NCBI GenBank assembly: GCA_964541315.1
Contig: CAZIQP010000003.1
Span: 1 to 64,000 of the forward strand
DNA length: 64,000 nt
Reading direction: 5' to 3'
Source: an uncultured Opitutaceae bacterium
GTDB lineage: Bacteria > Verrucomicrobiota > Verrucomicrobiia > Opitutales > Opitutaceae
The notes beneath the pieces are model-generated. The model did not search any database and was not told the DNA's origin. It saw nothing but the letters and a program-made list of their open reading frames with translations. This document shows, one piece after another, positions 1 to 23,365 of this stretch (its first letter is position 1; each line of letters starts with the position of its first letter). A program made the position numbers and the translations under genes.

Positions 1-55
1 CGTCCAGGGAAAATAATCCGCCATTGCTCAAGTTACCAACGGGGCGCCACCGACC

Positions 56-1744
56 TCAGGTTTGGCGGTTTTTTTCCGCCCGCTTCCGGCGCTCCCGCAC
101 CTGGGTAAAGATAAGCGAGACCACCAGCAACACTGTGCCGAGGACCAAGAAGGAAACGATCCGGTAGGTGGAGCCGAACTCGGTGGAAGCCACGACCACG
201 ACGTAGCCGACCGTGAGCAGCAAAGTCAGGTGGCCCATCCAGCGGTACTTCGGGTTTTGCACCATCAGGTTCATCAGGTAATAGGCGAGGGCCACGCCCA
301 CCCACGAGAGGCTGACGTAGGCTCGCGGCATCAGATGGTAGAGTGCGTAGGGGAAGATCACGAACGCACTGGCGAGATAGGCGTTGCGCATCAGCTCGGT
401 TCTCAGTTCGAGCCGCTCTTTTTTCCAATTGAGAATGCGCGCCGTCAGCAGGGCCACGATGCCGAAGCCGAGGCTGATGCCGGACTCCTGTTTGGCGGCC
501 ACCATGTAGGCGAGCACGATGGCGACGTAGATGAAAAAATTGGCGACCACGATCAGGCGGGAGCGGAACCAGAGCGCGGTTGCGACGACCACGAGACTTT
601 GCGCGGACAACCAGATGAACACCTCCGGCGACGGAAAATGCCTCGCGATGGCGACACTGAGCGCCAGATAGCCCGTCATCGCATAGAAAAAGGTCGGAAT
701 CCGGCTCGCTTCGCTTTTCCAGAAGGCCACTGCCAGGCCAAGAAAGACGATGGCGGCGGTGAGATGGGCCGGAGTGAATAGTCCGGTTTCCATTTTTAGG
801 GATTGCAGGAGAAAGATTCCGTAACCTGCACCGCAATTGAACAGCACCGCCGCGATCGTTGCCGGATCATCCAGACTCTTTTCCTTTCTCCGCAAGGCCC
901 CGGCCGTGAAAATCATCGCATACACCAGAAGGAAATAAATCCCGACCACCGGTTCGGCGAGAATTTGAAAAGGCCGTCCCGCCCAGGGGCGGTTGATCAA
1001 CCACAGCAAATAGGTCGAGTAGACGGCGGGAATGGAGAAGACCAACAGGCCCGGCCACTGGTGCCGCACGGCGGCCCAGGCTGCAAACGAAGCCAGGAGG
1101 GCGATACAACCAAAAACGACCCACGGTGTGCCGATCACCAACACAGCCAGCAGACCCATGGAAATGGCCAGACCGAGGAGCCAGGGAGATCGTTGCCGAA
1201 CTGCCACGCCGAGATTTATCGCGGCTGTCGCCAGCAGCAAGAGTGGCGCACCGAGCGACTCGATTTCCATGGCATGGGCGGAGCCGAAGAAAAACAACCG
1301 CAGGGTGGAAAAGAAGAGGAGCACCATGCCTGCGCCGCGAAAAAAACTGGCGAGAAGCTCGAAGGTGTCTTGCCAGCGCCGGGCGACAAACAACAGGCCT
1401 GCAGCGAGGAGGTAACCGAAGGCAGAGGGCGCGGCGGCGGGCTGTCCCGGCCAGGGGAGGGATAACGCAAAACCGACCCCGCAGGTCAGAACCAGTGCGC
1501 CGACGCTGGCGAACCAGTTTTGACCGACGACGAACTCGAGTTCCTCTGCTTCCGGCGGTTTGATGGACACCGGACGGAGCGGCGTGGGTTCCGTGGCCGT
1601 GATGCTTTGTCCGGCTTGGCTTGGCGCCGTGGACGCCAAAGGACCCAGAGCGAGGTGTTGTTCAATGCGCGCCAGCCGTTGCTCAAGGCGCATCAGCGTC
1701 TCGGATAGGGTGGGCTCAGACCGGTTGGTGGAGTCGACGCTCAA
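56..1744 (-). CDS. Polytopic membrane protein, DUF2339-like
   Basis: N-terminal coiled coil (RLEQRLARIEQHL), then 'ELEFVVGQNWFASVG' and many hydrophobic helices, ending 'RIVSFLVLGTVLLVVSLIF'. TTG start is uncertain. Confidence 0.7.
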   Translation of the reverse strand: MSVDSTNRSEPTLSETLMRLEQRLARIEQHLALGPLASTAPSQAGQSITATEPTPLRPVSIKPPEAEELEFVVGQNWFASVGALVLTCGVGFALSLPWPGQPAAAPSAFGYLLAAGLLFVARRWQDTFELLASFFRGAGMVLLFFSTLRLFFFGSAHAMEIESLGAPLLLLATAAINLGVAVRQRSPWLLGLAISMGLLAVLVIGTPWVVFGCIALLASFAAWAAVRHQWPGLLVFSIPAVYSTYLLWLINRPWAGRPFQILAEPVVGIYFLLVYAMIFTAGALRRKEKSLDDPATIAAVLFNCGAGYGIFLLQSLKMETGLFTPAHLTAAIVFLGLAVAFWKSEASRIPTFFYAMTGYLALSVAIARHFPSPEVFIWLSAQSLVVVATALWFRSRLIVVANFFIYVAIVLAYMVAAKQESGISLGFGIVALLTARILNWKKERLELRTELMRNAYLASAFVIFPYALYHLMPRAYVSLSWVGVALAYYLMNLMVQNPKYRWMGHLTLLLTVGYVVVVASTEFGSTYRIVSFLVLGTVLLVVSLIFTQVRERRKRAEKNRQT

Positions 1745-1776
1745 TTGACTTGCGTGGATTCACTGGGTCTTCCGGT

Positions 1777-2286
1777 TTATCCCGAACAGCCGCAGCCTTC
1801 ACCGCCGCAGCCACCATGGGTGTGAGCGTGGCCGGAGCCGGGATCGATGCCCGCTCCGAGCTGGTCGGCCAATCCGCAAAGGATTTGGTAATATTCTTTA
1901 CGCGGCACACCGAGCGCGCAGGAGGCAAAGGTTTCGGCGTCGTCGGACGAGGCAAATTCGCCGTAGTTCACGGTGACGAGCTGGTAGAGCGCCAAGTGGG
2001 GCACCAGGCTGAGCTGCGTCATGTAGATCGGATGCACATAGAGCGTGAATCCTTCCTCGGGCATGTCGCCGTTGGGCTCGGGAAAAGCAAACTCGCCGGG
2101 ATTGAGTCGTGCGCTGTCGAATACCAGCGTGCACGGATAACGCACACAGGTGCGGTCTTTCAAAATAGATTGCAGCTCGGACCAGCCGACGTGCGGGCCG
2201 TATTTCTCGAAAATTTCGAATCCCTTGGCGGCGACATGCGCGTTGAGGGATTGTTTGGCGTCGTTGGCGGTGAGGTGCGTGGCCAT
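1777..2286 (-). CDS. Hypothetical protein with His/Cys-rich C-terminal tail
   Basis: 169-aa ORF, ATG start, 18 bp downstream of the NrfD-like gene; tail HAHTHGGCGGEGCGCSG. Confidence 0.75.
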   Translation of the reverse strand: MATHLTANDAKQSLNAHVAAKGFEIFEKYGPHVGWSELQSILKDRTCVRYPCTLVFDSARLNPGEFAFPEPNGDMPEEGFTLYVHPIYMTQLSLVPHLALYQLVTVNYGEFASSDDAETFASCALGVPRKEYYQILCGLADQLGAGIDPGSGHAHTHGGCGGEGCGCSG

Positions 2287-2304
2287 AGGCGTGGGAAGGT
2301 GCGG

Positions 2305-4047
2305 TTACGGTTTGGTGGTGGCGGCTGCCGGGAACGGGACCGCGGTATCGCCGCGTCCTTCCGGCCGGCCCTCGTTGGCCTTGGTGAGCCGGCCCTGCAA
2401 AATCGGCACGGCCATGCGGAGAAAGATGGTGTAGCAGAGCAGTCCGAGCGCCCAGATCCCGAGACACACGAGCGTTTCGTTGAGCGAAGGCAGATAATCG
2501 ACGACCGCTCCGAGGGGCGTGGGAATGAAACCGGGGATGACCAGGCCCATGCCCTTTTCAATCCAGATGCCGACGATGCTGAGCACGCAGGCGACGTTGA
2601 GATATTTCAGACTCTTGCTGAGAGGCAGCACGAGGATGACCATCGCGATGAGATTAAAACCGATGGCGCTCCAGATCCAAGGCACCAGGGCATGATGGCC
2701 CTCGAGGCCAAGAAAAAGATATTTGGCCGAGGCACCGTGCGTCGTGCCGGAGTAGAATTCCTTGAACACTTCGCACACCAGCAGGAAGACATTGATGATC
2801 ATCGAAACCTGCACGATGCTGCGCAAAATAAACAGGCTGCGGTCGGTGATCATGAGCCGCTCGGTCATCCTGGCGTGGACGATCTGCTCCATCTCGCGGG
2901 TTTCCATCAGGACTTTCAACGACGTGTCCGGCAGGCGCAGGATGCGGGAAGGTTCCTCGGCGATGGCCGTGGCCTCGCGGGCGGTGCCGTGGAGAGCGGA
3001 GACTTCGCCGAATTGATCGCCCGGTCGCGCCGTGCGCGTGATGCGGAACAGACCTCCTTCTTCCTTCTTCACGACGACGCGTCCCTGCAATACGAAAAAG
3101 GCAAAGTGAGAGGTCGTGCCCTGGCGAAGCAAAATATCACCGGCAGCCACATCGATGACCGAGGCACCGGCGAGGGCGCGCTCGCGATCAGCGATAGAGA
3201 CCCAGGCCATTTCGGGCAGCTCGCGGGAGAGTTGATAGAAGTCGGCGAGAGAGGCCGATGTGCCGGAGCGGTTGCTGGCGTCGGTGCCGGTTGCCAGTTC
3301 CTTGGCGGAGCCGCCGGCGGTCACACGCCGGACCACCTGCAGCGCCAGAATGATCAGGGCCGGACCGGCGGTGAAGGCCGAGGCGAGAAAACGCGGGCCG
3401 ACGATCGACGCATTCCAAAAAGGCCGACCGCCCAGACCCACGTAGAGAAAGGCGGTGACGGTGTGGATCGAAATCGCCCACACAATGGCGATGAAAACAA
3501 ACGGGATATAAAACCACCTGGCCGGTTTCCTTTTTTGGTAGCGGCAATAGAGGAGATAGCCGCAGATATGCACGTTGAGCAGGAGGTAACCGTTCAGCAC
3601 CAGAACATCCCAACTGAGCATCGAACGGGGAAAGTTCATCTGTCCGATTCCCGGAATGAGATGCCAGAAGCGGTCGGGCCGGCCGAGATCAACGGTGACG
3701 AAGGCCAGACACATGATGATCGCGGCGACGGCCAGAAGCTCGCCGAAGATGACGAGGTCGTGCAGCTCCTCGTTGTCGTAGATATAGACCGGGATGACCA
3801 TCATCACCGCCGCGGCGGCGACACCGACGAGGAACGTGAAATTGGCGATGTAGACGCCCCAGGAGACTTCGTCGCTCATGCCGGTGACGACGAGACCGTG
3901 GACCAGTTGCTTGGCGTAGGCATTGAGGCCGAGCAGACAGACGACCGTGAGAGCCCCCATCCACAGATAGTAGCGCCAGTCGCCGACGAAGGCGATGTTG
4001 GCGCACCGCCGGAGAAACACGAGGTAGTTGCGGGTGGCGGTGATCAT
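2305..4047 (-). CDS. NrfD/DsrP-family quinone-interacting membrane subunit with inserted cNMP-binding domain
   Basis: 'GMSDEVSWGVYIANFTFLVGVAAAA', 'VDLGRPDRF', 'SMLSWD', 'GIWIEKG' motifs and about 10 TM helices; soluble insert aa ~243-399 containing 'GDQFGEVSALHGTAREAT'. Confidence 0.9.
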   Translation of the reverse strand: MITATRNYLVFLRRCANIAFVGDWRYYLWMGALTVVCLLGLNAYAKQLVHGLVVTGMSDEVSWGVYIANFTFLVGVAAAAVMMVIPVYIYDNEELHDLVIFGELLAVAAIIMCLAFVTVDLGRPDRFWHLIPGIGQMNFPRSMLSWDVLVLNGYLLLNVHICGYLLYCRYQKRKPARWFYIPFVFIAIVWAISIHTVTAFLYVGLGGRPFWNASIVGPRFLASAFTAGPALIILALQVVRRVTAGGSAKELATGTDASNRSGTSASLADFYQLSRELPEMAWVSIADRERALAGASVIDVAAGDILLRQGTTSHFAFFVLQGRVVVKKEEGGLFRITRTARPGDQFGEVSALHGTAREATAIAEEPSRILRLPDTSLKVLMETREMEQIVHARMTERLMITDRSLFILRSIVQVSMIINVFLLVCEVFKEFYSGTTHGASAKYLFLGLEGHHALVPWIWSAIGFNLIAMVILVLPLSKSLKYLNVACVLSIVGIWIEKGMGLVIPGFIPTPLGAVVDYLPSLNETLVCLGIWALGLLCYTIFLRMAVPILQGRLTKANEGRPEGRGDTAVPFPAAATTKP

Positions 4048-4114
4048 TTTGCGCAGAGGTTGAAACGATGGCAGGCGAACATGACGGCAAATTTCCCTTG
4101 GTCTTCAGTCGGTC

Positions 4115-5065
4115 TCATTTGTCGAAGTAGTAGAAGAACCGCGGATTGGTGCCCATTTCCTCCTTCAACTGGATGAAGATGCGCTTCGTCCGCAGGATGT
4201 AGGAAATCTCGCTCTCGGGATCGAGGATGTTGCCGAACTTGCGCGCGCCCACCGGGCAGACTTCGAGGCAGGCCGGATATTTGCCGACGCGGGTGCGCTG
4301 GATGCAGAAGTGGCATTTTTCCATCACGCCCTGTTTGCGCGGGCGGTTTCCGAGGTAGGCCATCTCGGGATTCAGGCGGTCGGCGGGAATCTCGGGCTTG
4401 GTAAAATTAAAACGTCGCGCCCAATACGGACACGCGGCCTCGCAATAGCGGCAGCCGATGCACCAGTCGTAGTCGATCACAGTGATGCCGTCTTTCTCCT
4501 GCCACGTGGCGTTGACGGGACACACCTTCACGCAGGGCGGGTTTTTGCACTGCTGGCACTGGACCGGCATGTAGAAAAAGCCTTTGTCGGGCACTTCCTT
4601 GTCGTCGTAGGTGTGATCGCCTTTCTCGACGTCCATGGAGCCATGCGGCATTTTGAGCACGCGGATGTACTGGATCTCGGGGCTGCGTGACTGGTTGTTT
4701 TCGGCGACACAGGCGTGCACGCATTTGCGGCAGCCAATGCAGCGGGTGAGATTCAACGCGTAGACGAACTCGACCCCGTCCATCGGCTTGAGATCGCGGA
4801 CGTGCGGACGAATTCCGTACTGGTGTTCGACTTCGTTGGTGATGCGTTCGAGCACCTGCTTCATTTCCTGCGGCGTCAGCTCCTTGTAATATTTCTGCAG
4901 GAACTGTTCGGTCGAGGTGTAGTCGCCGAGTTCGCGCAAGGGGGACAGGCTGGTGGCCAGGGCGGTGAGGCCGGCGAAGGCGGCAGTCGAGCGGAGAAAG
5001 CTCCGCCGGTCCAGATTTTTGGAACCGGTTTCGGGAACTGAGGCGGTGGGTTCGGGAAGAGGCAT
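4115..5065 (-). CDS. Tat-exported 4Fe-4S dicluster protein (NrfC/DsrO/PsrB family)
   Basis: Twin-arginine 'DRRSFL'; Cys motifs CIGCRKCVHAC, CQQCKNPPCVKVCP, CIGCRYCEAACP, KCHFC...CLEVCP. Start reset to ATG at 5065, 1 bp after the upstream stop. Confidence 0.92.
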   Translation of the reverse strand: MPLPEPTASVPETGSKNLDRRSFLRSTAAFAGLTALATSLSPLRELGDYTSTEQFLQKYYKELTPQEMKQVLERITNEVEHQYGIRPHVRDLKPMDGVEFVYALNLTRCIGCRKCVHACVAENNQSRSPEIQYIRVLKMPHGSMDVEKGDHTYDDKEVPDKGFFYMPVQCQQCKNPPCVKVCPVNATWQEKDGITVIDYDWCIGCRYCEAACPYWARRFNFTKPEIPADRLNPEMAYLGNRPRKQGVMEKCHFCIQRTRVGKYPACLEVCPVGARKFGNILDPESEISYILRTKRIFIQLKEEMGTNPRFFYYFDK

Positions 5066-5066
5066 A

Positions 5067-5738
5067 TCAGTGCGTGGTTTCTGAATGAGCCGAAGGGGCG
5101 AGGGCGGTGCGCAGGGCGTGCGGGCCGGGAGCCGGCACACGGGTGGGAATGCGCGGAGCGTGAGGATTATGGCAGTTGGCGCAGTCGAGCTTGCCGGCCT
5201 CGCCGAGGGACGTGTTCCAGTAACCATTGATCCGGCCGTGGGCGCCGGCCTCCCAGTCGCGATAGTTCGGACCGTGGCAACTGCCACAAAGCTGCGTGCT
5301 GTCGGCAAACTTGATCTCGCGACCGTCGCGCACTTGCAGGGTTTCGAGATTGGATTCGTTGTGGCAGTTGTAGCAGAGATTGTTCCGGTTGTGCGTGCCG
5401 TGGCCCATGACGATGTCCTTGTGCTCCACCGGCACGATCAGGATGTTGTTGGCATCGAAACGCAGTTGCGGCGGTTTTTTCTTGTCGTGGCACGCATAAC
5501 AGTCGAAGTCCGACAGATCCTCCTTGGCGCGCACCAGATCGGCGTAAGTCTGGCGCCAGGGGGTTTTTTCCAGAAAAGATTTTTCAACGAGCGCGATGTT
5601 CTGGCGCGCCGGCGGATGACCCCACAGATCGCCGAGAAACGCGGCGGCCAGTCCGAAGAACACCAGCACCATGGCCCCGAAAACGTATCCCGTTGGGGAG
5701 GGTTTGGCCGCTTCGGGAGTGGAAGGTTTTAGCTCCAT
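5067..5738 (-). CDS. Membrane-anchored tetraheme cytochrome c
   Basis: N-terminal TM helix; four CXXCH (CYACH, CYNCH, CGSCH, CANCH). Confidence 0.9.
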   Translation of the reverse strand: MELKPSTPEAAKPSPTGYVFGAMVLVFFGLAAAFLGDLWGHPPARQNIALVEKSFLEKTPWRQTYADLVRAKEDLSDFDCYACHDKKKPPQLRFDANNILIVPVEHKDIVMGHGTHNRNNLCYNCHNESNLETLQVRDGREIKFADSTQLCGSCHGPNYRDWEAGAHGRINGYWNTSLGEAGKLDCANCHNPHAPRIPTRVPAPGPHALRTALAPSAHSETTH

Positions 5739-5764
5739 GGCGGGCCGGTGTTGGTGGCGCCGGC

Positions 5765-6094
5765 TTATTTCTTGAAGGCGCGGACCAGAGGAATCAGTGC
5801 CTTCATGTCTTCGTCGCTCAGTCCTTCAATCGCCTTCATGGAAGTCTTGCCGTTCTTGTCGGTGATGCCCTTTTTCATGGCCTCGAAGGCTTGTTCGTCG
5901 GTGAACGCGGACTGGACCTTGGCGTCGGTGAAATCGCCGATGTTGAGTTTTTTTCCCATCTTGGTCTGACCCTTGCCGTCGGGACCGTGGCACTTGGCGC
6001 AATGCTCATCCCAGTTGGCCTGGGCATCGGCGGCGGAGACGACGGAAGTGATACCGAGAAACAAAAGAACGGCGAGCAGATGTTGCTTTTTCAT
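5765..6094 (-). CDS. Periplasmic monoheme class I cytochrome c
   Basis: Signal peptide MKKQHLLAVLLFLGITSVVSA, CAKCH, candidate axial Met in 'KTSMKA'; start reset to ATG at 6094 (109 aa). Confidence 0.9.
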   Translation of the reverse strand: MKKQHLLAVLLFLGITSVVSAADAQANWDEHCAKCHGPDGKGQTKMGKKLNIGDFTDAKVQSAFTDEQAFEAMKKGITDKNGKTSMKAIEGLSDEDMKALIPLVRAFKK

Positions 6095-6142
6095 TTTTGG
6101 GATGGGTTGTCGGGAACGATGGCAGGATGGCGAACTGACAGC

Positions 6143-6156
6143 CTGACTATCGTCAA
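6143..6156. promoter_or_regulatory. Possible FNR/CRP-family box
   Basis: CTGAC-TATC-GTCAA resembles TTGAT-N4-ATCAA; lies between divergent cytochrome genes. Confidence 0.35.
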
Positions 6157-6334
6157 AATTCGTCAGGAGGACTACCAGCACCTTGGTCAAGACTGCGCAT
6201 ATCTTGTTTTCCGATTGGCGGGGAGAAAATGCGCCCGCGCTGTCCGGGCCGCGGCGAAGCAAGATACGCTCATCGGTGCGCAAGTGTTGCGGAGCCGAGC
6301 CCTGCGGTTTCCTGTAACATTGAACCAAGGAAAC

Positions 6335-8548
6335 ATGAAGGCTCCCGAATTATTCCGGTCGGGCCTGGGCGTGCTGACACTCATTCTGTACGTCGGAGCT
6401 GTCCGCGCCGCCGAAGCCGGAAATCGCGGGGCGGCGACTCCTGCGGTGCCCAACAGCGAGTGCATGGATTGTCATGCAGCGGAGTTTAAGCCGCGCAAGA
6501 AGGGGCTGCCGCCCGAATGGATCGGGGTGAAGCCCGAGGTGTTTGCCGGATCAGCGCATGGCAAGCTGAACTGTGTGGAATGCCACACCACGATCACAGA
6601 GTCGCCGCATCCCTCCAAGCTGCCGCCGGTCCAGTGTGTGTCCTGCCACGAAAAATCAACCGGCCAACACGCCTTTCATCCAAGGCTTGCGCTCACGCCC
6701 GTGCCAGACGGCAAGGACACATCGTGCAAGGAATGCCATGGCTCCCATGACACGGTGGCGGTGAAAAAGAACGGGTTTTCCTTTGCCAGTTCCCGGCAGA
6801 CCGAGACCTGCGGGCGCTGCCACGAGGGGGCGCAGAAAGCCTATCTCGCCTCGGCCCACGCGGTGACACCGGCCGGAAAGGAACGCATCACGCCCGACTG
6901 TCTTGGTTGTCACAAGGAGCGGATCGCCAGCCAGGGGCCGCGCCGCTCGCTCGGGGAGTTGAAACTCGCCCAGGCGAAACTTTGCGAATCCTGCCATGTG
7001 GGGAAATCCGAGGTCGTCTCCAAATCCAGTTTTGGGGCGAAGTTCGTTTCGTCGTTTGACCACTCCGTGCACGGGGCCGCATTGCAAGCGGGCCGCGCGG
7101 AGTCCGCCGGTTGCATCGATTGCCATGGCGCGCATGCGATGAACAAAGCCGCCGTCGCCGGGGCCAAAATAAACCGGATCAACCTCACGGGGACCTGCGC
7201 CAAGTGCCATCAGCAGCAGGCGAAGGAATTTGCGACCAGCGTGCATGCGATCGCCCTGAACCAAGGGAATCTCGATTCGGCCGGCTGCACGAATTGTCAT
7301 GGCGAGCACGACATCCGGCAACACACCGATCCGGCTGCGCCGGTGCACAAGGCCAATCTGGCACGGCAGGTCTGCGCCGAGTGTCATGCCTCGGTCCGTC
7401 TCACCAAGCGTTACGGACTCTCGAGCGACACGTTCAAAACTTTTTCCGACAGCTATCATGGGCTCGCGGTCAGGGGCGGTTCAGTGGAGGTGGTGAATTG
7501 CGCGAGCTGTCACGGTGTCCACGCCATCAAGTCGCAGGACGATCCGACTTCCACCGTCAACAAGGCCCATCTCGCGCAGACTTGCGGCGCGTGTCATCCC
7601 GGTGCCAACACCCGGTTCGCCATCGGGGCGGTGCACGCCAGCGAGTCGAAGCGCGAATCGTCGCCGTGGCTCTATTGGATATCTTCGCTCTACCTCTGGC
7701 TGATCATCGTGGTGGTTGGAGCCATGGCCGGGCATAACCTGCTCGATTTTACCAGGAAGACTCGCCACAAGCTCGCGGTCCAGAAAGGCGAGGCCCTGGA
7801 GCTGCACGTCGCGCACCGGCTCTATCTGCGGATGACTGCCCATGAACGCCTGCAGCACGGTTTGCTCGTCATCAGCTTCGTTGCCCTCGTGATCACCGGC
7901 TTCATGCTCCGTTTTCCCGAGGCTTGGTGGGTGGTCGGCATTCGTCGGTTCAGTTCCGGTGCCTTTGAGCTGCGCAGCCTGGCGCATCGCATTGCCGGGG
8001 TCGTCATGCTGCTCGGGGGCGCGTGGCATATCGGGTATCTTGCGTTTACGCGGCCCGGCCGGTCGCTCTTTTGGGATCTCCTGCCGCGCTGGCGTGATGT
8101 CACGGATCCGTGGGGCGTACTGAAATACAATCTCGGCGTCGTGAAAGACAAACCCGCTTTCGGCCGTTTCAGTTACATCGAGAAAGTCGAATACTGGGCT
8201 CTCGTCTGGGGCACGCTGCTCATGGGTGCTACTGGCGCGATCCTCTGGTTCGAGAATGCGTCGATGGGATACTTCACCAAGCTCGGCTTCGATGTCGCCC
8301 GCACGGTTCACTTCTACGAGGCGATTCTCGCCACGCTGGCGATCATCGTCTGGCACTTCTATTTCGTCATCTTCAACCCCGACGTTTATCCGATGAACCT
8401 TGCCTGGCTCACCGGCCGGATGTCCGAAGCTGAGATGAGGGAGGAACATCCGCTTCAGCTTGAACAAATGAAAGCAGCAGAACGGGCCGCTGCGGATGCG
8501 GCGAAGCCACCGGTTGGGAAGGAACGGCCACCAGGAAGCGCGGCGTGA
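6335..8548 (+). CDS. CbcL-like multiheme cytochrome c fused to cytochrome b (13 CXXCH)
   Basis: AAGGA RBS before ATG 6335, signal peptide, 13 CXXCH, C-terminal FdnI/HydC-type cyt b domain (ERLQH, AHRIAG, EKVEYWA, VHFYEAILA, WHFY). Confidence 0.9.
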   Translation: MKAPELFRSGLGVLTLILYVGAVRAAEAGNRGAATPAVPNSECMDCHAAEFKPRKKGLPPEWIGVKPEVFAGSAHGKLNCVECHTTITESPHPSKLPPVQCVSCHEKSTGQHAFHPRLALTPVPDGKDTSCKECHGSHDTVAVKKNGFSFASSRQTETCGRCHEGAQKAYLASAHAVTPAGKERITPDCLGCHKERIASQGPRRSLGELKLAQAKLCESCHVGKSEVVSKSSFGAKFVSSFDHSVHGAALQAGRAESAGCIDCHGAHAMNKAAVAGAKINRINLTGTCAKCHQQQAKEFATSVHAIALNQGNLDSAGCTNCHGEHDIRQHTDPAAPVHKANLARQVCAECHASVRLTKRYGLSSDTFKTFSDSYHGLAVRGGSVEVVNCASCHGVHAIKSQDDPTSTVNKAHLAQTCGACHPGANTRFAIGAVHASESKRESSPWLYWISSLYLWLIIVVVGAMAGHNLLDFTRKTRHKLAVQKGEALELHVAHRLYLRMTAHERLQHGLLVISFVALVITGFMLRFPEAWWVVGIRRFSSGAFELRSLAHRIAGVVMLLGGAWHIGYLAFTRPGRSLFWDLLPRWRDVTDPWGVLKYNLGVVKDKPAFGRFSYIEKVEYWALVWGTLLMGATGAILWFENASMGYFTKLGFDVARTVHFYEAILATLAIIVWHFYFVIFNPDVYPMNLAWLTGRMSEAEMREEHPLQLEQMKAAERAAADAAKPPVGKERPPGSAA

Positions 8549-8555
8549 TTTCAGG

Positions 8556-8636
8556 GAGGTAGGGCGCGACCGCTGGGCGCGCCGAAGGATTCTGCTGGCC
8601 AGCAGAACGGACGGCCCAGCGGTCCGTCCCTACCTC
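8556..8636. repeat. REP/REPIN-like long palindrome
   Basis: GAGGTAGGG..GACCGCTGGGC pairs with GCCCAGCGGTC..CCCTACCTC around the perfect palindrome TTCTGCTGGCCAGCAGAA (8590-8607). Confidence 0.75.
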
Positions 8637-8738
8637 AAACAGGTTTCCCGTGGATTCGTCTGTTTTGCCAATAAACGCCGACGAGCTTGCAAGGGCTGCG
8701 TAGCCAACTGCGCACTTTTTGCCGTATAGTAAATTATC

Positions 8739-10913
8739 GTGAGACACGCAGCGTCATTGTCTTCCTGGCCGGCGCGTTGGTCGGTTGGCTTGTTTCTGCT
8801 CGCGGCCGGGTCTGTCGGAGCGGCTGAAAATGCCGTGGTTCCGATCGCAACGGCGGCGGTGAAGAGAGTCGACTGTGCGAACAGCGACTGCATGGAATGC
8901 CATGTCGCGAAATTCAAACCGCGCAAAAAGGGACTGGCCCCCGAATGGGTCGGGGTGAAGGCGGAAGTTTTCGCCAAGTCGGTGCATGCCAAACTCAATT
9001 GTGTCGATTGCCATGCCACCATCGTGGAGACCCCGCACGATGCGAAATTGCCGTCGGCCCAATGCGTCAGTTGTCACGAAAAACCGGCCAATCAATACGC
9101 CAACAGCATCCATGGCATCAGCCACCAGATGGGTGCTTCGGAAGCCGCGTCCTGCGCGAGCTGCCATGGCACGCATGACATGGTGCCGGTCAAACAGATT
9201 GATTCACCCGTCTTCAAGTTCAACCTGTCGAAGACATGCGGCACCTGTCACGACAACGCGAAATTGACGAAAGAGTACCGCATGGGGCAGACCGAAGCGG
9301 CAGGGCACTACAACGATAGCATTCACGGCAAGGCGCTCGTCAAGATGGGCCTGATAGTCGCGCCTTCGTGCAACGACTGCCATGGGGTCCATGATATCAA
9401 GCGCAGCGTCGACAAGGACTCGCACACCAATCACGCCAACATCGCCAAATCTTGCGGTACGTGTCACCTTGGCATCGAGGAAACGTACAACGCCAGCGTG
9501 CACGGCCAGCTCCTGCTGAAAGGCGACAAGAAAGGCCCGGTGTGCACGGATTGTCATAGCGCGCACGATATCGAGAAACCTGCTTCCGCCCACTTCAAGG
9601 CGGGCAGCGACCAGAGCTGCGGCAAATGCCACGAAGACCGGCTGGAGCACTACCGCGAAACCTATCACGGCAAGGCGATGGCGCTCGGCCAGCCCAACGT
9701 CGCTTCGGACGTCGCGGCCTGTTACGATTGCCACGGCCATCACGATGTTTTCCCGGTGAGCGATCCGCGCTCGCGCCTGCACAAGGACAAGATTGTCGGC
9801 ACCTGCTCGCAATGCCACCCGGGAGTGAACGCCAGCTTCACGAAATACGCGCCGCATGCCAACCCGTTGGACAAGGTCAACTATCCGCTCCTCAACAAGG
9901 TTTTCCTGTTCATGACCGCTTTGCTCGTGGGCGTGTTTTCATTCTTCGGGTTGCATACCGCCTTCTGGCTCTTCCGTTCCGTCTATCTCTACCTGCATGA
10001 TTCGAAGAAATTCCGCGAGGCGGTGGTCTCGGCGAACGCGGATGACGACACCTATACCCGCTTCACCCCGTTTGAGCGGATGCTGCATCTGATGATGGTG
10101 ACGAGTTTCCTCACACTCGTGATCACGGGCATGCCACTGAAATTCTATTACACGGACTGGGCGAAGGTGATGTTCCGTTTCATCGGCAGCGCCGAGGTGG
10201 CCCGCACACTGCACCACTACGCGGCGGTCGTGACGTTCGCCTACTTCACCCTGCACGTGGGCAGCCTTATCCCGGAATTTTGGCGCAAGCGCCACAGCCT
10301 CCGCGATCCCGCGACCGGCAAGCTCTCGCTGCAATGCGTGTGGGCGACGATTTTTGGCCCCGACTCGATGGTGCCGTCGTTCCAGGACTGGCGTGATTTC
10401 ATTGCCCACCAGAAATGGTTCTTCGGCAAGGGACCCAAGCCGCAGTTCGACCGCTGGACTTATTGGGAACGCTTCGACTATTTCGCGGTGTTCTGGGGCA
10501 TCGCCATCATCGGGTTCTCCGGCCTGATCCTCTGGTTCCCGAAGTTCTTCACGCTCTTCCTGCCCGGCTGGATCATCAACATCGCCATGGTGGTGCATTC
10601 CGACGAGGCGCTGCTGGCTGCCGGCTTCATCTTCTCATTCCACTTTTTCAACACGCATTTCCGCATCGAGAAATTTCCGATGGACACAGTCATCTTCTCG
10701 GGCCGAATTTCTAAGACCGAGATGCTGCACGAGCGGAAACGCTGGTACGACCGCTTGGTCGCCGCCGGTCGGTTGGAAATCTATCGCATCAAGGCCGACG
10801 ACTGGGAAGGCCGGAAGAACATCGCCAAGACGATGGGCTTTATCTTCTTCGGCACCGGCCTGATTCTGCTCGCACTCATCATCTACGCGATGGTTTCACG
10901 GCTGGGGCATTGA
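8739..10913 (+). CDS. Second CbcL-like multiheme cytochrome c/cytochrome b fusion (11 CXXCH)
   Basis: GTG start, signal peptide, 11 CXXCH, cyt b domain (ERMLH, LHHYA, ERFDYFAVFWG, VHSDEALLA, FHFFNTH). Confidence 0.9.
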   Translation: MRHAASLSSWPARWSVGLFLLAAGSVGAAENAVVPIATAAVKRVDCANSDCMECHVAKFKPRKKGLAPEWVGVKAEVFAKSVHAKLNCVDCHATIVETPHDAKLPSAQCVSCHEKPANQYANSIHGISHQMGASEAASCASCHGTHDMVPVKQIDSPVFKFNLSKTCGTCHDNAKLTKEYRMGQTEAAGHYNDSIHGKALVKMGLIVAPSCNDCHGVHDIKRSVDKDSHTNHANIAKSCGTCHLGIEETYNASVHGQLLLKGDKKGPVCTDCHSAHDIEKPASAHFKAGSDQSCGKCHEDRLEHYRETYHGKAMALGQPNVASDVAACYDCHGHHDVFPVSDPRSRLHKDKIVGTCSQCHPGVNASFTKYAPHANPLDKVNYPLLNKVFLFMTALLVGVFSFFGLHTAFWLFRSVYLYLHDSKKFREAVVSANADDDTYTRFTPFERMLHLMMVTSFLTLVITGMPLKFYYTDWAKVMFRFIGSAEVARTLHHYAAVVTFAYFTLHVGSLIPEFWRKRHSLRDPATGKLSLQCVWATIFGPDSMVPSFQDWRDFIAHQKWFFGKGPKPQFDRWTYWERFDYFAVFWGIAIIGFSGLILWFPKFFTLFLPGWIINIAMVVHSDEALLAAGFIFSFHFFNTHFRIEKFPMDTVIFSGRISKTEMLHERKRWYDRLVAAGRLEIYRIKADDWEGRKNIAKTMGFIFFGTGLILLALIIYAMVSRLGH

Positions 10914-11077: not shown

Positions 11078-12172
11078 TTAGCGTACCACGCGGGCGCCGC
11101 CGCCGCTGATGGTCTTTTCGACTTCCCTGCGGGTGGCCATCGAGGTGTCGCCGGGGGTCGTCGAGGCGAGGGCGCCGTGGGCGGCACCGTACTCGACGGC
11201 TTTCTGCGCGTCGTTGAATTCCATGAAACCGAACTGCACGCCGGAAGCGAAGCTGTCGCCACCGCCGACGCGGTCGAGAATCTCGAGGCCGGGATACTGC
11301 TTGCTCTCGTGGAATTTACCGGCGTGCCAGAGAATGGCGCTCCAGTCGTTCTTCGTGGCGGTAATGACGTGGCGCAGCGTGGTGGCGGCGACCTTGAAGT
11401 TCGGGAATTCCTTCACGGCGGTCTCGATCATTGCCTTGAAGGCGTCGGTCTCGATGTGGCCGAGGGTTTCCTGACCCTTGACGGCGAAGCCGAGTGACGC
11501 GGTGAAGTCTTCCTCGTTGCCAATCATGACATCGACATACTTCGCGATCTCGCGGTTGACTTCCTGGGCTTTCTTGAGGCCGCCGATGGTTTTCCAGAGC
11601 GAGGGACGGTAGTTGAGATCATAGCTGACGATCGTGCCGTGTTTGTTGGCGGCCTTGACGGCCTCGACAGTGAGCTCGGCGGTGGTGGCGGAAAGGGCGG
11701 CGAAAATACCACCGGTGTGAAACCAGCGCACACCGAGTTTGCCAAAAATATGGTCCCAATCGATGTCACCGGGCTTGAGCTGGGAGGCGGCGGTGTTGCC
11801 GCGGTCAGGATTGCCGACGGCGCCGCGGATGCCGAAGCCGCGCTCGGTGAAGTTGAGGCCGTTGCGGACGGTGCGGCCGATGCCGTCGTCCTCGCGCCAC
11901 TTGATGAAGTCGGTGGCGACGCCGCCCTGCATGATGAAATCCTCGACGAGGTGGCCGACCTCGTTGTCGACGAAGGCGGTGACGACGGCGGTTTTATAGC
12001 CGAAGCATTTGCGGAGACCGCGGGAGGTGTTGTATTCGCCGCCGCCTTCCCAGACTTGGAAGTTGCGGGCGGTGCGAATGCGGCCCTCGCCCGGGTCGAG
12101 GCGCAGCATGACTTCGCCGAGCGAGATCTGGTCGAAGGCGACGGATTTGGCAGGTTTGATTTGGAGGCTCAT
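11078..12172 (-). CDS. kdgK: 2-dehydro-3-deoxygluconokinase (PfkB family)
   Basis: GEVMLRL, GGGEYN, SYDLNYR, DRVGGGDSFA motifs; clustered with eda and kduID. Confidence 0.88.
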   Translation of the reverse strand: MSLQIKPAKSVAFDQISLGEVMLRLDPGEGRIRTARNFQVWEGGGEYNTSRGLRKCFGYKTAVVTAFVDNEVGHLVEDFIMQGGVATDFIKWREDDGIGRTVRNGLNFTERGFGIRGAVGNPDRGNTAASQLKPGDIDWDHIFGKLGVRWFHTGGIFAALSATTAELTVEAVKAANKHGTIVSYDLNYRPSLWKTIGGLKKAQEVNREIAKYVDVMIGNEEDFTASLGFAVKGQETLGHIETDAFKAMIETAVKEFPNFKVAATTLRHVITATKNDWSAILWHAGKFHESKQYPGLEILDRVGGGDSFASGVQFGFMEFNDAQKAVEYGAAHGALASTTPGDTSMATRREVEKTISGGGARVVR

Positions 12173-12241
12173 GGGTGTAGAGGAGATTTTTAACCACTAA
12201 TGCACACTAAGGAGACACTAATGGTCGGAAGTTGGCGGCAG

Positions 12242-13339
12242 TTAGATTGTGACGGTCTTGAAGGACTCGGTTTTCCAGAGCGGTTGCCTGGCTTCGGTGG
12301 CGAGTTCGTTGAAGGCATCGACCTCGGCTTTGGAGAAGAGCAGACCGCCGGCCGCGGCGGTGTGTTTGGCCCAGTTGGCTTCGAGCTGGCCGGGAAGCAT
12401 GGCCTTTTCGTTGCCGTGGCCGAGGACATCGTCGATGACGGCCTTCACGTTTTGTTTCTGGTTGCGGCCCTTCGCAAAGGCGCCGCCGTTGATCGCATCG
12501 GGATGGATGACTTGGAAAAAAAAGACGCAGGTGCCCTTGTCGCCCCCGGCTTTGTCCCAGCGATTGCGGATGGTCGGAAGGGAACCGCCGATGAAGCCGC
12601 CCACGATTTCATTGATGAGCGAGAGACCGTAGCCTTTATGCGCTCCGAACGGGAGGAGTGAGACGGCGAGATTCGGATCGGTGGTCGGATTGCCATCCTT
12701 GTCCACGGCGGCCATCGGCGGGAGCGGCTTGCCTTCGCGCTTGAGCTGTTGCACACGGCCCATGGCCACGACGGACGTGGCCCAGTCGATCACGATCGGG
12801 TAGCCAACAGCATCGGTCGTGGGAAAGCCCCACGAGTGGGGATTGGTGCCGAGGGTGGGGAACTTGCCGCCGAAAGGAACAACTTCGGCGAGAGCGGCGG
12901 TGCAGTTCGTGTAGGCGATGTAGCCTTTTTTCGCAGCATCCATCACATAGCCGCCGCCCCAAAGATAGTGGAAGGCGTTGTCGACGGAGATGGTGCCGAC
13001 GCCGTATTTGTCGGCGAGGCGCATGGCCTCGTCCATCGCGCGGTAGGCGGTGGATTGACCGAGTTTTTTGTTGGCGTTCCAGATTTTGGCGGCCTCGAAT
13101 TTCGAGGGCTTCACTTCGATCTGCGCGCCGGGCACGCAGCCTTTGGAGCCGGAGCCGAAGAGGTGGTCTAGGTGGAGGGCCTTGATGCCGTTGTGGGTGC
13201 GAATGCCGTGGCGCGAGGCCTCGGCGCAAAAGCGCGCGCCTTCGGCCGATTCATCGGCAAGGAAACCGCGGTGCATGTAAGCCGCGGCCACAAGGGCATT
13301 ATGCTGGGATTCGGGGACAATGAAGAATTGTTCGGGCAT
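12242..13339 (-). CDS. Ldh_2-family oxidoreductase (AllD/YiaK/ComC-like)
   Basis: GIRTHNG, LGTNPHSWG, IDWATS, PTTDP, PFGAHKGYGL, LPG motifs. Confidence 0.85.
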   Translation of the reverse strand: MPEQFFIVPESQHNALVAAAYMHRGFLADESAEGARFCAEASRHGIRTHNGIKALHLDHLFGSGSKGCVPGAQIEVKPSKFEAAKIWNANKKLGQSTAYRAMDEAMRLADKYGVGTISVDNAFHYLWGGGYVMDAAKKGYIAYTNCTAALAEVVPFGGKFPTLGTNPHSWGFPTTDAVGYPIVIDWATSVVAMGRVQQLKREGKPLPPMAAVDKDGNPTTDPNLAVSLLPFGAHKGYGLSLINEIVGGFIGGSLPTIRNRWDKAGGDKGTCVFFFQVIHPDAINGGAFAKGRNQKQNVKAVIDDVLGHGNEKAMLPGQLEANWAKHTAAAGGLLFSKAEVDAFNELATEARQPLWKTESFKTVTI

Positions 13340-13389
13340 GGGAGGCGAAAGAGAGTTCTTGAAATAGGGCCTACAGGTTTAAGCTTTTC

Positions 13390-14370
13390 TCAGACGACCT
13401 TCTTGGTCGGGACCTCGGGGTTGATCTGGGCGAGGGGTTTCTCGCCGTTCATGGCGAGGATGAGGTTTTTCACGGAGGCGGTGGCCTGGCGGACGACGCT
13501 CTCGTAGGTGCGCGAACCGACGTGCGGCGTGCAGACGCAGTTCGGGAGCTTGAGCAGCGGGTGGTCGGGCGTCGGCGGTTCGGTGTCCAGCACGTCGGTG
13601 CCGTAGCCACCCACCTGCCCGGACTTGAGGGCTTCGACCATGTCGGCGGTATGGACGATCTCGCCGCGGGCGCAGTTGAGGATGAGCACCCCCTTTTTCA
13701 TTTTCGGGAATGATTTCGCGCTGATCATGTCGCGCGTCTCCGGCGTGAGATTGGTGTGGAGCGAGAGATAATCGGAAACAGCGTAGACTTCGTCGAGGGT
13801 GGCGGCGCGCTTCACGTTGTGGGCGGCGGCGAATTTTTCGTCCCAATAAAGATCGAAACCGATCACATTCATGCCGAAGGCACGGGCACGGATGGCGACT
13901 TCTTTGCCAATGCGGCCGAGCCCGATGATACCGATGGTTTTCTCGAGGAGCTCGTGCCCGGTCTTGCGTTTCCAGGTGTTGGCGCGCGTGGAGTCGGTAT
14001 GGTAGAAAAAGTTTTTCTCGAGGGCGAGGAGGAGCAGGAACGTGTGCTCGGCCACCGTGGTGTGGTTGACACCGGGCGTGAAGAGGAGAGGCAGGCCGAA
14101 TTCGGTGCAGGACTTGACGTCGATCTTGTCGACGCCGATGCCGTATTTGCTGATGACTTTCAGACGCGGGCGGGCTTTTTCCAGAACTTTGCGGGTGATC
14201 ATGTCGTCGCCGCAGATGTAACCGTCGATGTCGCCGACGAGCGCGAGGGTGTCGGCTTCGTTGAGCGGGCCGCGGGCGCGGATGATTTCCCATCCGGTGG
14301 CAGCGAGGAGCTGGTGATGCTCGCCCGGCGTATCTTGAAATGAAGTGGTGGTAAGGAGTATACGGGTCAT
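13390..14370 (-). CDS. D-isomer-specific 2-hydroxyacid dehydrogenase (SerA-like, no ACT domain)
   Basis: GIGVDKID, VAEH, GIIGLGRIG, NCARG, DVLDTEP, TPHVG. Confidence 0.88.
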   Translation of the reverse strand: MTRILLTTTSFQDTPGEHHQLLAATGWEIIRARGPLNEADTLALVGDIDGYICGDDMITRKVLEKARPRLKVISKYGIGVDKIDVKSCTEFGLPLLFTPGVNHTTVAEHTFLLLLALEKNFFYHTDSTRANTWKRKTGHELLEKTIGIIGLGRIGKEVAIRARAFGMNVIGFDLYWDEKFAAAHNVKRAATLDEVYAVSDYLSLHTNLTPETRDMISAKSFPKMKKGVLILNCARGEIVHTADMVEALKSGQVGGYGTDVLDTEPPTPDHPLLKLPNCVCTPHVGSRTYESVVRQATASVKNLILAMNGEKPLAQINPEVPTKKVV

Positions 14371-14382
14371 GGAGAAAGCAGG

Positions 14383-15024
14383 TTACAGTTTCACGGCGGC
14401 GGCAGCGGCGACAAACACCTTGGCACGGGCCGTGATGGCGGCCCAATCGCCGGCCTTCAACGCGGCGGCGGCCACGAGCGAACTGCCGGCGGCGGTGGCG
14501 AACGCGCCGGCTTTGAGGAAATCGCCGAGAGTTTCAGGCGTGACGCCGCCGGTGGGCAGGAATTGCAGGTTCGGGAAAGGAGCCTTGAGTGATTTGATGT
14601 AGGCGGGACCGAAAAATTCGGCGGGGAAAATCTTGATGACGTCGGCCCCGAGTTCGTGGGCGCTGTACGCTTCTGTCGGGGTGAGCGCACCGGAAAGAAT
14701 TGGAACGCCCGCTTCACGGCACACCGCGATAACGGTGGGGCGGAGCGCCGGGGTCACGATGAATTTCGCGCCGGCCGCGATGCCCTTACGGGCCGTGTCG
14801 GCATCAAGCACGGTGCCGAGCCCGAGGAGGACTTGCGGCAGCTCCTTGGCGACCAGGGCGCACATTTCCAAGGCTCCCGGCGTGGTCATCGTGAGCTCGA
14901 TGCAATTGAGCCCGCCGGCGGAAAGCGCGCGGGCGCAATCGAGGAGACTGGATGAGCTGTCGGCGCGGATGAGGGCGATGACTTTCTCGGTTTTGATGCG
15001 GTTCAGAACGTCGGATTTGGACAT
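14383..15024 (-). CDS. eda: KDPG/KHG aldolase
   Basis: IELTMTTP, GLGTV, FIVTP, GALTPTE, KIFPA, PTGGV. Confidence 0.9.
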   Translation of the reverse strand: MSKSDVLNRIKTEKVIALIRADSSSSLLDCARALSAGGLNCIELTMTTPGALEMCALVAKELPQVLLGLGTVLDADTARKGIAAGAKFIVTPALRPTVIAVCREAGVPILSGALTPTEAYSAHELGADVIKIFPAEFFGPAYIKSLKAPFPNLQFLPTGGVTPETLGDFLKAGAFATAAGSSLVAAAALKAGDWAAITARAKVFVAAAAAVKL

Positions 15025-15093
15025 GGCAGAGGGGGGAATGAGATGAATTGTCGGACGAGAATCGGGCGACGGGATGGGGTAGGACTTTATGGC

Positions 15094-15933
15094 TTAACGG
15101 ACCCCGGCGACAGCAAAGTGCGGATCGGTGTAACCGATCAGCCGTGAGAGTTCACTGGCGGCGGCCTTCACATCTGCGGCCATCTGCGGAATGCGCTCTT
15201 TGGGAAAACGGACGGTGGCGGCGGTGATCCCGATGGCGGCGACACAGGTGCCGTCGGAGGAATAAACCGGGGCGGCGAGGCAACGGACGCCGAGATGAAA
15301 TTCCTCGTCATCCAGGCTGAAGCCCCGTTTGCGGGTGATTTCGGTTTCACGGCGGATTTCCGCCGCCGTGGTCTGGGTGTGAGCCGTGCGCTTGACCGGT
15401 GGGAACCGTTTGATGATTTCCTCGATCCGGGCTTGATGCAAACAGGCCAGAAAGGTTTTGCCGGTGGAGGAGCAGTGCAGTTCCGCCAAGAAACCGGGAC
15501 GCGAGGCGGCACGGAGTGGGTGGGGGCTGTCCTGCACGGCCACAATGAGCGAACGGTCGTCGCAGGGAATCGCCAGGTGGCAGGTTTCGGAGATCTGCCC
15601 GGTCAGTTTTTCCAGGACGGGCAGGGCGGTGGTGCGGATTTCCGTGCCGGCGAGTGAGGCGGTGCCCAATTGGATCAAGACCGGGCCCAGTTCAAACTGG
15701 TTGCCGTGCTTCCGCACCAACCCTTCCAGATGAAGAGTCGTCATGATGCGCAGCGTGGTGGTGACGGGAATGCCCAGCCGGCGCCCGATATCGGCCGCCT
15801 TAAAACTCTCCGTCGAGCTGCTCAGTAATTTGAGAATGCGGCACGCGTTGCGCAGATTGGGAATGACGTAGCGTTCCTGACTGGAGACACTGGGCGGGGT
15901 CGGAGTGGGCGGGGCTATCTGCCGGGTGGGCAT
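15094..15933 (-). CDS. IclR-family transcriptional regulator (KdgR-like role)
   Basis: N-terminal HTH (DIGRRLGIPVTTTLRIMTTL), ETCHL, HCSSTGK, RGFSLDDEEFHLGVRCLAAP. Start placed at ATG 15933. Confidence 0.9.
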   Translation of the reverse strand: MPTRQIAPPTPTPPSVSSQERYVIPNLRNACRILKLLSSSTESFKAADIGRRLGIPVTTTLRIMTTLHLEGLVRKHGNQFELGPVLIQLGTASLAGTEIRTTALPVLEKLTGQISETCHLAIPCDDRSLIVAVQDSPHPLRAASRPGFLAELHCSSTGKTFLACLHQARIEEIIKRFPPVKRTAHTQTTAAEIRRETEITRKRGFSLDDEEFHLGVRCLAAPVYSSDGTCVAAIGITAATVRFPKERIPQMAADVKAAASELSRLIGYTDPHFAVAGVR

Positions 15934-16016
15934 GGAGGGGAGAGAAGTTATGTTGGGGATGATCGAAAAGGAAAGTGGAGCAGAGAAGAATATTTTCTTG
16001 CCAAATAGCACCATAG

Positions 16017-16047
16017 TTCAGATATGAATGTCAATTTCATTAGTGAA
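16017..16047. promoter_or_regulatory. Tandem palindromic operator candidates TTCA-N4-TGAA
   Basis: TTCAGATATGAA (16017-16028) and TTCATTAGTGAA (16036-16047), interleaved with minus-strand TTGACA hexamers at 16029-16034 and 16060-16065. Confidence 0.55.
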
Positions 16048-16521
16048 TATCAACAGGCATGTCAATTTAGCTTATCACCACCACACGCTCACCCCGATGG
16101 AAACCCTATCTGTTTTCGGACAGTACTTGCGGCGTTGCTCCCGGTGTGCCCGGTGCGGTTCAGTTTGCCGGTTTCCACCGTCAATAACCTTGGTCTTTTG
16201 TTGACCCAAGCCGCAGACCTTCCCTCCCGGCGCCACCACATGAACCATGCGAGCCACATCAGCCTCAAGTTTTGGCGGCATGTTCTGGAACTTGCCACCC
16301 TGTCTTTCAGGCCGGTGCATTTTGCACACCCGCTCATTTTCGCTCAACTTTCATCGCAGCGAATTCCCGCAACAGCATGCACTCTTGGAATAGCCAGGAA
16401 ACCCGCCCGGTGGCGCTTGAGCCACAAGGCAGGCCCAACTGTCCGGTCGTTCATCAAGCAAGTTGCTGTGGACATGATCCGGCCGTTTTATACATTCTAA
16501 ATTTCCCCCAGCCCCTTCTTT

Positions 16522-17352: not shown

Positions 17353-17388
17353 TTCTCTTTTGCTCCCAACCCACCCTTTGCTTACCAC

Positions 17389-18156: not shown

Positions 18157-18166
18157 AAATTTTCCC

Positions 18167-19390: not shown

Positions 19391-19498
19391 TGCCGCGCCA
19401 TCCGGCAAACCGCCTGGCCGACGGATCACGACGGACTGACATCATTTTCCGTCGGCGCATTTTTCCTTAGACACGAGCCACCGATCCGCCACCACGGC

Positions 19499-23364: not shown

Positions 23365-23365
23365 T

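Follow-up and report, generated by a model that had tools for sequence, protein, structure and literature searches.

What becomes of the electrons gathered by a cytochrome locus that has no catalytic subunit of its own? The question is raised by positions 56 to 10,913 of a contig (C3; CAZIQP010000003.1) from an uncultured Opitutaceae bacterium (GenBank assembly GCA_964541315.1; 409 contigs, 92% complete), of which positions 1 to 64,000 (C3:1-64000) form the window, the whole stretch that was analysed. A first-pass annotation of the window described leftward genes for a monoheme cytochrome, a tetraheme cytochrome, a Tat iron-sulfur (FeS) protein and an NrfD-like protein, and rightward genes for 13-heme and 11-heme fusions. 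The open reading frames (ORFs) and domains (NrfD, 4Fe-4S dicluster, multiheme and b561/FdnI-type; Pfam, NCBIfam) agree with it, as do the 29 CxxCH motifs on the window side (1 + 4 + 13 + 11) and a divergent gap of 240 bp, measured from start codon to start codon (6094 and 6335, as chosen). The inserted domain, the 169-aa ORF and the DUF2339 gene listed below are absent from that annotation; the inserted domain is the most unusual part. The genes form the inner-membrane half, severed by a contig end, of a porin-cytochrome cluster of about 16 kb that continues on a second contig of the assembly, C2. The cluster probably carries electrons of the quinol pool out to extracellular acceptors, and a cyclic-nucleotide-binding (cNMP-binding) insert in its DsrP-like subunit, predicted to face the cytoplasm, would gate one entry route. 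The features are as follows, first in the window and then on C2.

1..55 (+): C3/C2 overlap; bases 2-16 are the last four codons and the stop of the ImcH-like heptaheme gene
56..1744 (-): DUF2339 multi-pass membrane protein without heme motif, often a neighbour in relatives, in varying orientation
1777..2286 (-): conserved 169-aa ORF of no known family, with a His/Cys-rich tail
2305..4047 (-): DsrP-like (NrfD-family) quinol-binding membrane subunit, 580 aa, ten predicted membrane helices
2848..3318 (-): inserted cyclic-nucleotide-binding domain of the DsrP-like gene, aa 244-400, Pfam core 300-383
4115..5065 (-): Tat-type FeS protein (DsrO/NrfC/QrcC family), RRSFL motif, 16 Cys
5067..5738 (-): tetraheme cytochrome c with N-terminal membrane anchor, CbcS-like layout, 4 CxxCH
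5765..6094 (-): monoheme cytochrome c, predicted periplasmic shuttle, 1 CxxCH
6095..6334 (no strand): divergent intergenic region, 240 bp
6335..8548 (+): 13-heme cytochrome c fused to an FdnI/HydC-type cytochrome b domain (CbcL-like), 13 CxxCH
8739..10913 (+): 11-heme cytochrome c / cytochrome b domain fusion, 11 CxxCH
G000:C2:40-1572: ImcH-like heptaheme cytochrome, NapC/NirT family (PF03264), 6 CxxCH and one CX3CH
G000:C2:1601-1936: monoheme cytochrome c
G000:C2:2036-4273: MtrB-fold porin, 745 aa, barrel-like C-terminus
G000:C2:4295-5095: MtrA-like octaheme lipoprotein, 7 CxxCH and one CX4CH

Read as its reverse complement, the 55-base start of C2 is identical to that of C3, and no other such overlap was found for this contig end. 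Contigs that span the join are present in two public, independently assembled runs, one of 4,993 bp in run X1 (window 1-1621 plus C2 1-3427) and one of 3,530 bp in run X3 (window 1-2590 plus C2 1-995), and each is 55 bp shorter than its two parts added together. The bridging records were paired between two look-ups by length and depth, and X1 is possibly the source sample of the assembly. The same gene order also occurs on single contigs in locus L129, from a metagenome-assembled genome (MAG), and in locus L076. The porin and octaheme genes begin about 2 and 4 kb past the window edge, and the joined locus, about 15.95 kb long, has 43 heme motifs of canonical form and 2 atypical ones. The reported lack of an outer-membrane porin is therefore apparent only, because the contig end cuts the locus. 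An inner-membrane hub linking quinones to the periplasm, as first proposed, still describes the window genes; an orphan hub lacking a conduit is ruled out by the 55-bp overlap and the bridging contigs of X1 and X3. The monoheme cytochrome of the window is 52% identical to its porin-side counterpart on C2. The metagenome runs containing DNA of the locus carry rhizosphere and peat labels; the source may be among them, and runs of the same year may belong to one campaign. No RNA run with the locus was listed, which speaks neither for nor against its expression. Named close homologs of the locus proteins come from Opitutales and other Verrucomicrobiota.

The porin has no informative Pfam, NCBIfam or PDB sequence match. 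Its AlphaFold2 model, built from an 18-row alignment, is an all-beta barrel (mean predicted local distance difference test score, pLDDT, of 76.8) with 26 long strands by hand count of the DSSP list; the top Foldseek match is MtrB (6r2q_B, E 2e-12, TM 0.54/0.61), followed by TonB-dependent receptors. The octaheme gene lies 21 bp from the porin gene, and the profile of its product matches chain A of the same Mtr structure (6r2q_A, E 9e-40). The seven CxxCH motifs and the CX4CH motif recur in 18 of the 19 listed homologs, the remaining one being truncated, and Cys27 is invariant within a lipobox-like signal. Modelled as a complex, porin and octaheme scored 0.87 against 0.00 for the best of three controls, with a contact agreement of at least 67% among runs and a partner pLDDT of 72. 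Of solved pairs, 116 of 157 attain the mark applied, as do 2 of 215 mismatched ones, and since the MtrAB structure is solved, the score may reflect likeness rather than binding. A 26-strand porin with the octaheme seated inside is thus the predicted arrangement. The pair resembles MtrAB, MtoAB and PioAB in its MtrA homology, MtrB-like fold and predicted cytochrome-in-barrel assembly, but has eight hemes where MtrA/DmsE have ten (TIGR03508 score 149.5, below the DmsE cut-off of 192.2), and its porin matches the MtrB/PioB family by fold and not by sequence. Unlike in MtrCAB, no surface decaheme MtrC was found in the 92%-complete assembly. Among relatives, loci L045, L134 and L149 carry two tandem porin-octaheme pairs.

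The join also raises the kinds of quinol module from the two first described to three, since an ImcH-like gene lies beyond the edge. In its product, Glu, Lys, Gln and Tyr stand at -10, +36, +42 and +51 of the heme-1 His, a spacing equal to that of E127/H137/K173/Q179/Y188 as given for ImcH in the available part of a preprint (bioRxiv 2023.05.03.539133), and 22 of 23 homologs keep E, K and Q at this spacing. As a NapC/NirT-type membrane cytochrome with seven heme motifs and an E/K/Q/Y set around heme 1, the protein has the architecture of ImcH. The c/b fusions share with CbcL, MtrH and MtoC an N-terminal multiheme c part and a HydC/FdnI-type b part with conserved His; past the last heme motif, all 27 aligned rows have His in the same seven columns. 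The proposed likeness to CbcL is upheld by these residues and by the 11-heme fusion, whose 11 motifs lie at a constant offset from those of Oter_2603 (O. terrae) and Verru16b_03342 (L. limnophila) and so have identical spacing. The seven motif positions of the heptaheme protein are likewise at a constant offset from Oter_2584. As the available part of Zhong and Shi 2018 (PMC6295460) lists Oter_2603 and Verru16b_03342 among CbcL homologs and gives Oter_2584 as a homolog of ImcH, the ImcH-like and 11-heme parts were already catalogued. Sequence searches of the PDB yielded no decisive match for the ImcH-like protein or the c/b fusions. CbcL of Geobacter is a single protein with 9 hemes, whereas two paralogs with 13 and 11 hemes are present here; and the three architectures that Geobacter has as ImcH, CbcL and Cbc4 stand here in one cluster together with a conduit.

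The third module is the trio of tetraheme, FeS and DsrP-like proteins. The DsrP-like protein passes the DsrP hidden Markov model (HMM; 407.6 vs cut-off 350) and the FeS protein falls below the DsrO HMM cut-off (170.8 vs 200); the 16 Cys of the latter are consistent with four [4Fe-4S] clusters. ActC matches the DsrP-like protein distantly (E 1.5e-8) and is the Foldseek match for the membrane part of its model. D120 aligns with ActC His139 (residue identity read off the alignment), a position equated with the quinol-site Asp107 of DsrP in the available part of a DsrMKJOP structure preprint (bioRxiv 2026.08.25.746951). For residue comparisons, 90 loci gave 83 ORFs, which with the window protein make 84 rows, two of them identical; all 84 share D120, F139, H195 and E497. 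The suggested resemblance to the Cbc4 (CbcSTU) layout was confirmed, as the locus has the operon of anchored tetraheme, FeS and NrfD-type genes found in Cbc4 and in the DsrOhPh-tetrahaem complex. In Cbc4 the FeS protein is described as feeding the anchored tetraheme (PMC13591261, available part), and the DsrOhPh-tetrahaem complex of cable bacteria and others is described as having DsrP-like, DsrO-like and tetraheme genes without dsrMK (PMC13047784, available part). The present locus shares with the DsrOP part of DsrMKJOP the HMM match and the quinol-site Asp. It differs from Cbc4 in the cNMP insert of its NrfD-type subunit, and from DsrOhPh-tetrahaem and DsrOP both in the insert and in its link to a porin-cytochrome conduit. 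Three identities were ruled out: DsrMKJOP, as dsrM and dsrK were not found in the 92%-complete genome; NrfCD with NrfA, as NrfA was not found; and alternative complex III, on its missing partners, the distance of ActC and a separate locus of that type on contig C45. Fused forms of the trio proteins occur elsewhere. P0127 is a natural fusion of an NrfD homolog with a tetraheme homolog (34% identity, E 1e-37), and P0202 is an FeS-NrfD fusion that looks partial and possibly frameshifted and was given little weight. P0132 is a single 859-aa record in which an NrfD homolog runs into a long beta-barrel-like region, either a true fusion or a read-through error.

Within the DsrP-like protein, residues 244-400 form an insert in place of a short loop between predicted helices 6 and 7. 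It contains a PF00027 cNMP-binding domain (aa 300-383, E 4e-16) with an intact FGE-x-S...R-x-A phosphate-binding cassette. Gly-Glu and Arg bind the ribose and the cyclic phosphate in PKA, PKG and CRP. All of the best 120 homologs listed have PF03916 together with PF00027 (four are the window's own protein or near-copies), and F346, G347, E348, S350, R357, A359 and R397 are invariant across them. An insert of 154-164 residues is present in 50 of the 84 rows; G347, E348, R357, A359 and R397 are kept in 50 of 50 at a mean pairwise insert identity of 58%. By Foldseek the fold matches PKA, PKG, MloK1 and DNR domains, with trypanosome PKA-R also listed. The insert is thus like the regulatory domains of PKA/PKG, CRP and the MloK1/SthK channels in fold and phosphate-binding cassette, but sits in a loop of a respiratory quinone-binding membrane subunit. 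It follows the sixth long helix in the model of the DsrP-like protein (pLDDT 75.8, predicted template-modelling score 0.75) and is predicted to face the cytoplasm from the cytoplasmic N-terminus, the basic loops at 169-177 and 240-241, the ActC alignment and the model.

Insert-bearing and insert-free natural variants are about 87% identical in the N-terminal half. On a core-only tree, where the rows nearest to the window protein are Opitutae/Verrucomicrobiota MAGs, insert status needs 9-11 changes, 3-4 of them forced by well-supported branches, and a single clade of insert-bearing cores was rejected (approximately unbiased test on a quick tree, p = 0.00016). Because the insert-free forms have a common conserved loop (about RVT-x-Y-x-ITD), exchange by recombination would fit better than many independent deletions. 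One insert-bearing locus, L162, lies on a contig of a MAG labelled Bifidobacteriaceae and is probably misbinned. A cNMP domain was present in 3 of 15 scanned among the best 150 representatives at 50% identity, and the 24-member cluster P0124 has an NrfD homolog with tandem C-terminal CBS domains instead, which appears to be a second type of nucleotide-sensing domain on the same NrfD subfamily. The genome encodes two class III cyclase domains, one of them on a response-regulator protein. No report of a cNMP insert in an NrfD/DsrP-type subunit was found in a literature search that left subscription journals mostly uncovered, and an NrfD survey (PMC8076601) makes no mention of cyclic, cNMP, cAMP or CBS.

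Conservation was surveyed in relatives; shared ancestry keeps these from being independent samples, and several of the genomes are incomplete. Of 27 congeners, 22 have the porin, 22 the ImcH-like gene and 21 the CbcL-like gene; 20 have all three and 4 have none. The NrfD-like gene of the trio occurs in 8, all with porin, ImcH-like and CbcL-like genes; among 33 more distant relatives it was found only in G035 (full core) and G049 (no porin match). A scan of a genome collection used the best 80 of 568 relatives, in which 44 loci are 15 kb or longer. In these 44, tetraheme and FeS genes stand beside the NrfD-like gene in all, and a 169-aa ORF adjoins it in 41. Of the same loci, 26 have a porin or octaheme gene, 26 a CbcL-like gene, 25 an ImcH-like gene, 11 the pair of c/b fusions and 7 ccs genes. 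In 36 of the 44, a gene for porin/octaheme, ImcH-like or CbcL-like proteins lies no more than 10 kb from the NrfD-like gene. Gene order and the divergent layout are often shuffled, and the two arms of the window locus, offered at first as a unit whose parts should be conserved together, are not obligately so (CbcL-like in 21 of 27 congeners, trio in 8). The core is the porin-octaheme pair with ImcH-like and CbcL-like genes, and the trio is a frequent add-on.

In the proposed export of electrons, quinol would be oxidised at any of the three kinds of module: the ImcH-like protein, the two CbcL-like fusions or the DsrP-like/FeS/tetraheme trio. The two monoheme cytochromes would ferry the electrons through the periplasm, and the octaheme would hand them outward through the porin to acceptors such as humic quinones or Fe(III). 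A catalytic subunit would not be needed because the acceptor sits outside the cell. The parallel modules would cover different redox windows, as in Geobacter, where ImcH, CbcL and CbcBA are assigned one window each (bioRxiv 2021.04.15.440034, available part). Binding of cAMP (or cGMP) to the insert may switch the trio, a tentative proposal suggested by the conservation of the ligand-contacting residues. Fuller and more doubtful is the idea that the second messenger cAMP directly gates a DsrP-like quinol dehydrogenase that is one of three export routes, so that carbon status is tied to extracellular respiration at the enzyme and not at transcription, by an insert that is an exchangeable cassette across the phylum. 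If so, an NrfD-family respiratory subunit would be under allosteric second-messenger control. Opitutaceae and their relatives are common sugar-polymer degraders of bogs, lakes and root zones. The locus holds the full parts list for a quinol-to-cell-surface route, which would allow respiration on humics or iron over fermentation and divert carbon from methane, as proposed in the available part of PMC5615132.

Several observations weigh against this reading. The porin assignment comes from predicted structure and gene order, as the sequence has no match to MtrB models. Among the 13 ORFs with at least two CxxCH in the 92%-complete assembly there is no MtrC/OmcA-like surface multiheme, and a layout lacking one is common to the MtoAB/PioAB systems of Fe(II) oxidisers. 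A Cyc2-like gene, so called from a motif we take to be Cyc2-type, is also present and, with the missing surface multiheme, leaves the direction of flow unsettled. The trio is missing from 12 of the 20 congeners with the full core, and in 8 of the 44 long loci it stands without a detected conduit gene; the trio is therefore an accessory that may also work with other partners. G. sulfurreducens lacking CbcS is listed with unimpaired reduction of Fe(III) and Mn(IV) (PMC13591261, available part). Finally, 34 of the 84 close homologs do without the insert while their cores are equally conserved, so the insert is dispensable.

This last point also favours the view that the locus works as proposed while the insert binds another ligand or serves only for dimerisation or docking. 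Heme, gases or nucleosides are also ligands of CRP/FNR-type folds, and both DNR and trypanosome PKA-R are among the fold matches. We consider such a role somewhat unlikely, because Gly-Glu and Arg are invariant in all insert-bearing rows and in the best 120 homologs, while neighbouring surface positions vary freely.

The same hardware could also run inward, from Fe(II) or reduced humics through porin-octaheme, monohemes and c/b fusions to quinone or oxidases, as proposed for MtoABCD and PioAB. The monoheme partners and the lack of an MtrC-like surface cytochrome in the assembly fit this direction, as do genes of alternative complex III type followed by cbb3-like oxidase subunits on contig C45 (L042:7510-18518). 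So does the Cyc2-like ORF (G000:C102:12661-14199; L209:3662-5200), which has an N-terminal heme motif and then a barrel-like region, is cut at the contig end and has no NCBIfam match. According to the available part of PMC6295460, CbcL/MtrH/MtoC homologs occur in Fe(III) reducers and Fe(II) oxidisers alike, but those of ImcH were found in Fe(III) reducers alone. DsrP oxidises menaquinol according to the one structure report, as available (bioRxiv 2026.08.25.746951). Limisphaera, of the same phylum, is reported to reduce Fe(III) (PMC13608581, available part), and the pectin/uronate catabolism encoded in the window supplies organic electrons. Inward flow is on balance quite unlikely, and export remains the preferred direction.

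That the trio is a general-purpose quinol dehydrogenase merely sited in the cluster and serving an unlinked periplasmic reductase, perhaps one absent from the assembly, would suit its presence in so few congeners and the occurrence of DsrOhPh-tetrahaem loci, of unknown function, in organisms with or without sulfur metabolism (PMC13047784, available part), but it is very improbable, as NrfA, DsrK and DsrM/NarI were not found in the 92%-complete assembly, the genome's four molybdopterin-family matches are an FdhF/YdeP protein, two pieces resembling one NasA-type nitrate reductase beside assimilation-type genes, and an ORF that we read as NuoG-like, and the sole other multiheme protein with at least four motifs, next to five of this locus, is the pentaheme of the alternative complex III. 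None of the four matches is linked to the locus, and no molybdoenzyme lies within it, so the initial statement that it has no molybdopterin enzyme, NrfA or DsrMK stands.

Porin-cytochrome loci of this kind were already known. In the available part of He et al. 2017 (PMC5615132), Verrucomicrobia, including O. terrae and other Opitutae, are reported to have porins of at least 20 strands beside cytochromes having eight conserved sites that bind heme, and electron transfer to humic substances was proposed; putative genes of such complexes in Verrucomicrobia are listed again in the available part of He et al. 2019 (PMC6344600). The 26 predicted strands and eight heme sites found here liken the locus to that porin-multiheme complex by architecture. 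The inner-membrane modules and the cNMP domain present here are not in the text and supplements searched of the 2017 paper, and no extracellular multiheme is present here. Known before, then, are the kind of locus and its ImcH-like and 11-heme parts; new are the parts list in one cluster and, above all, the cNMP domain in an NrfD-family respiratory subunit. Extra 9-heme cytochromes near the locus in relatives (L070:2345-3955, L072:2649-4391 and L051:18929-21235) are candidates for the extracellular cytochrome missing here.

A search of the genome for porin-cytochrome conduits and heme-maturation genes, as first suggested, gave the conduit on C2 and homologs of System II (ccsA- and resB-like genes). 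In relatives, HemN-like radical SAM and ResB/CcsA heme-maturation genes are often within the locus itself (L035:4668-5999 and similar; L034:12251-15444). The 169-aa ORF next to the DsrP-like gene matched no Pfam or NCBIfam family; its atlas matches are unnamed Verrucomicrobiota clusters, and zincin-like matches score 0.80 or less and are leads only. It is possibly an accessory or assembly factor. The 240-bp gap has no sigma-70-like site and, judged by consensus motifs, no FNR-like match and a single CRP-like match with 3 mismatches; shared regulation of both arms from this gap was ruled out for want of a convincing sigma-70, CRP or FNR site. To the right of the locus, window positions 11078-24394 hold a uronate/pectin cluster (PfkB kinase, KDPG aldolase, IclR, KduI, GH88 and GH28, MFS, pectinesterase). 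A link between the two was rejected, as they are kept together in 1 of 80 genome loci and 0 of 90 other loci. In one relative (G007, L037:14631-16196), a methyl-accepting chemotaxis protein with a CxxCH motif adjoins the 11-heme fusion and possibly serves redox taxis.

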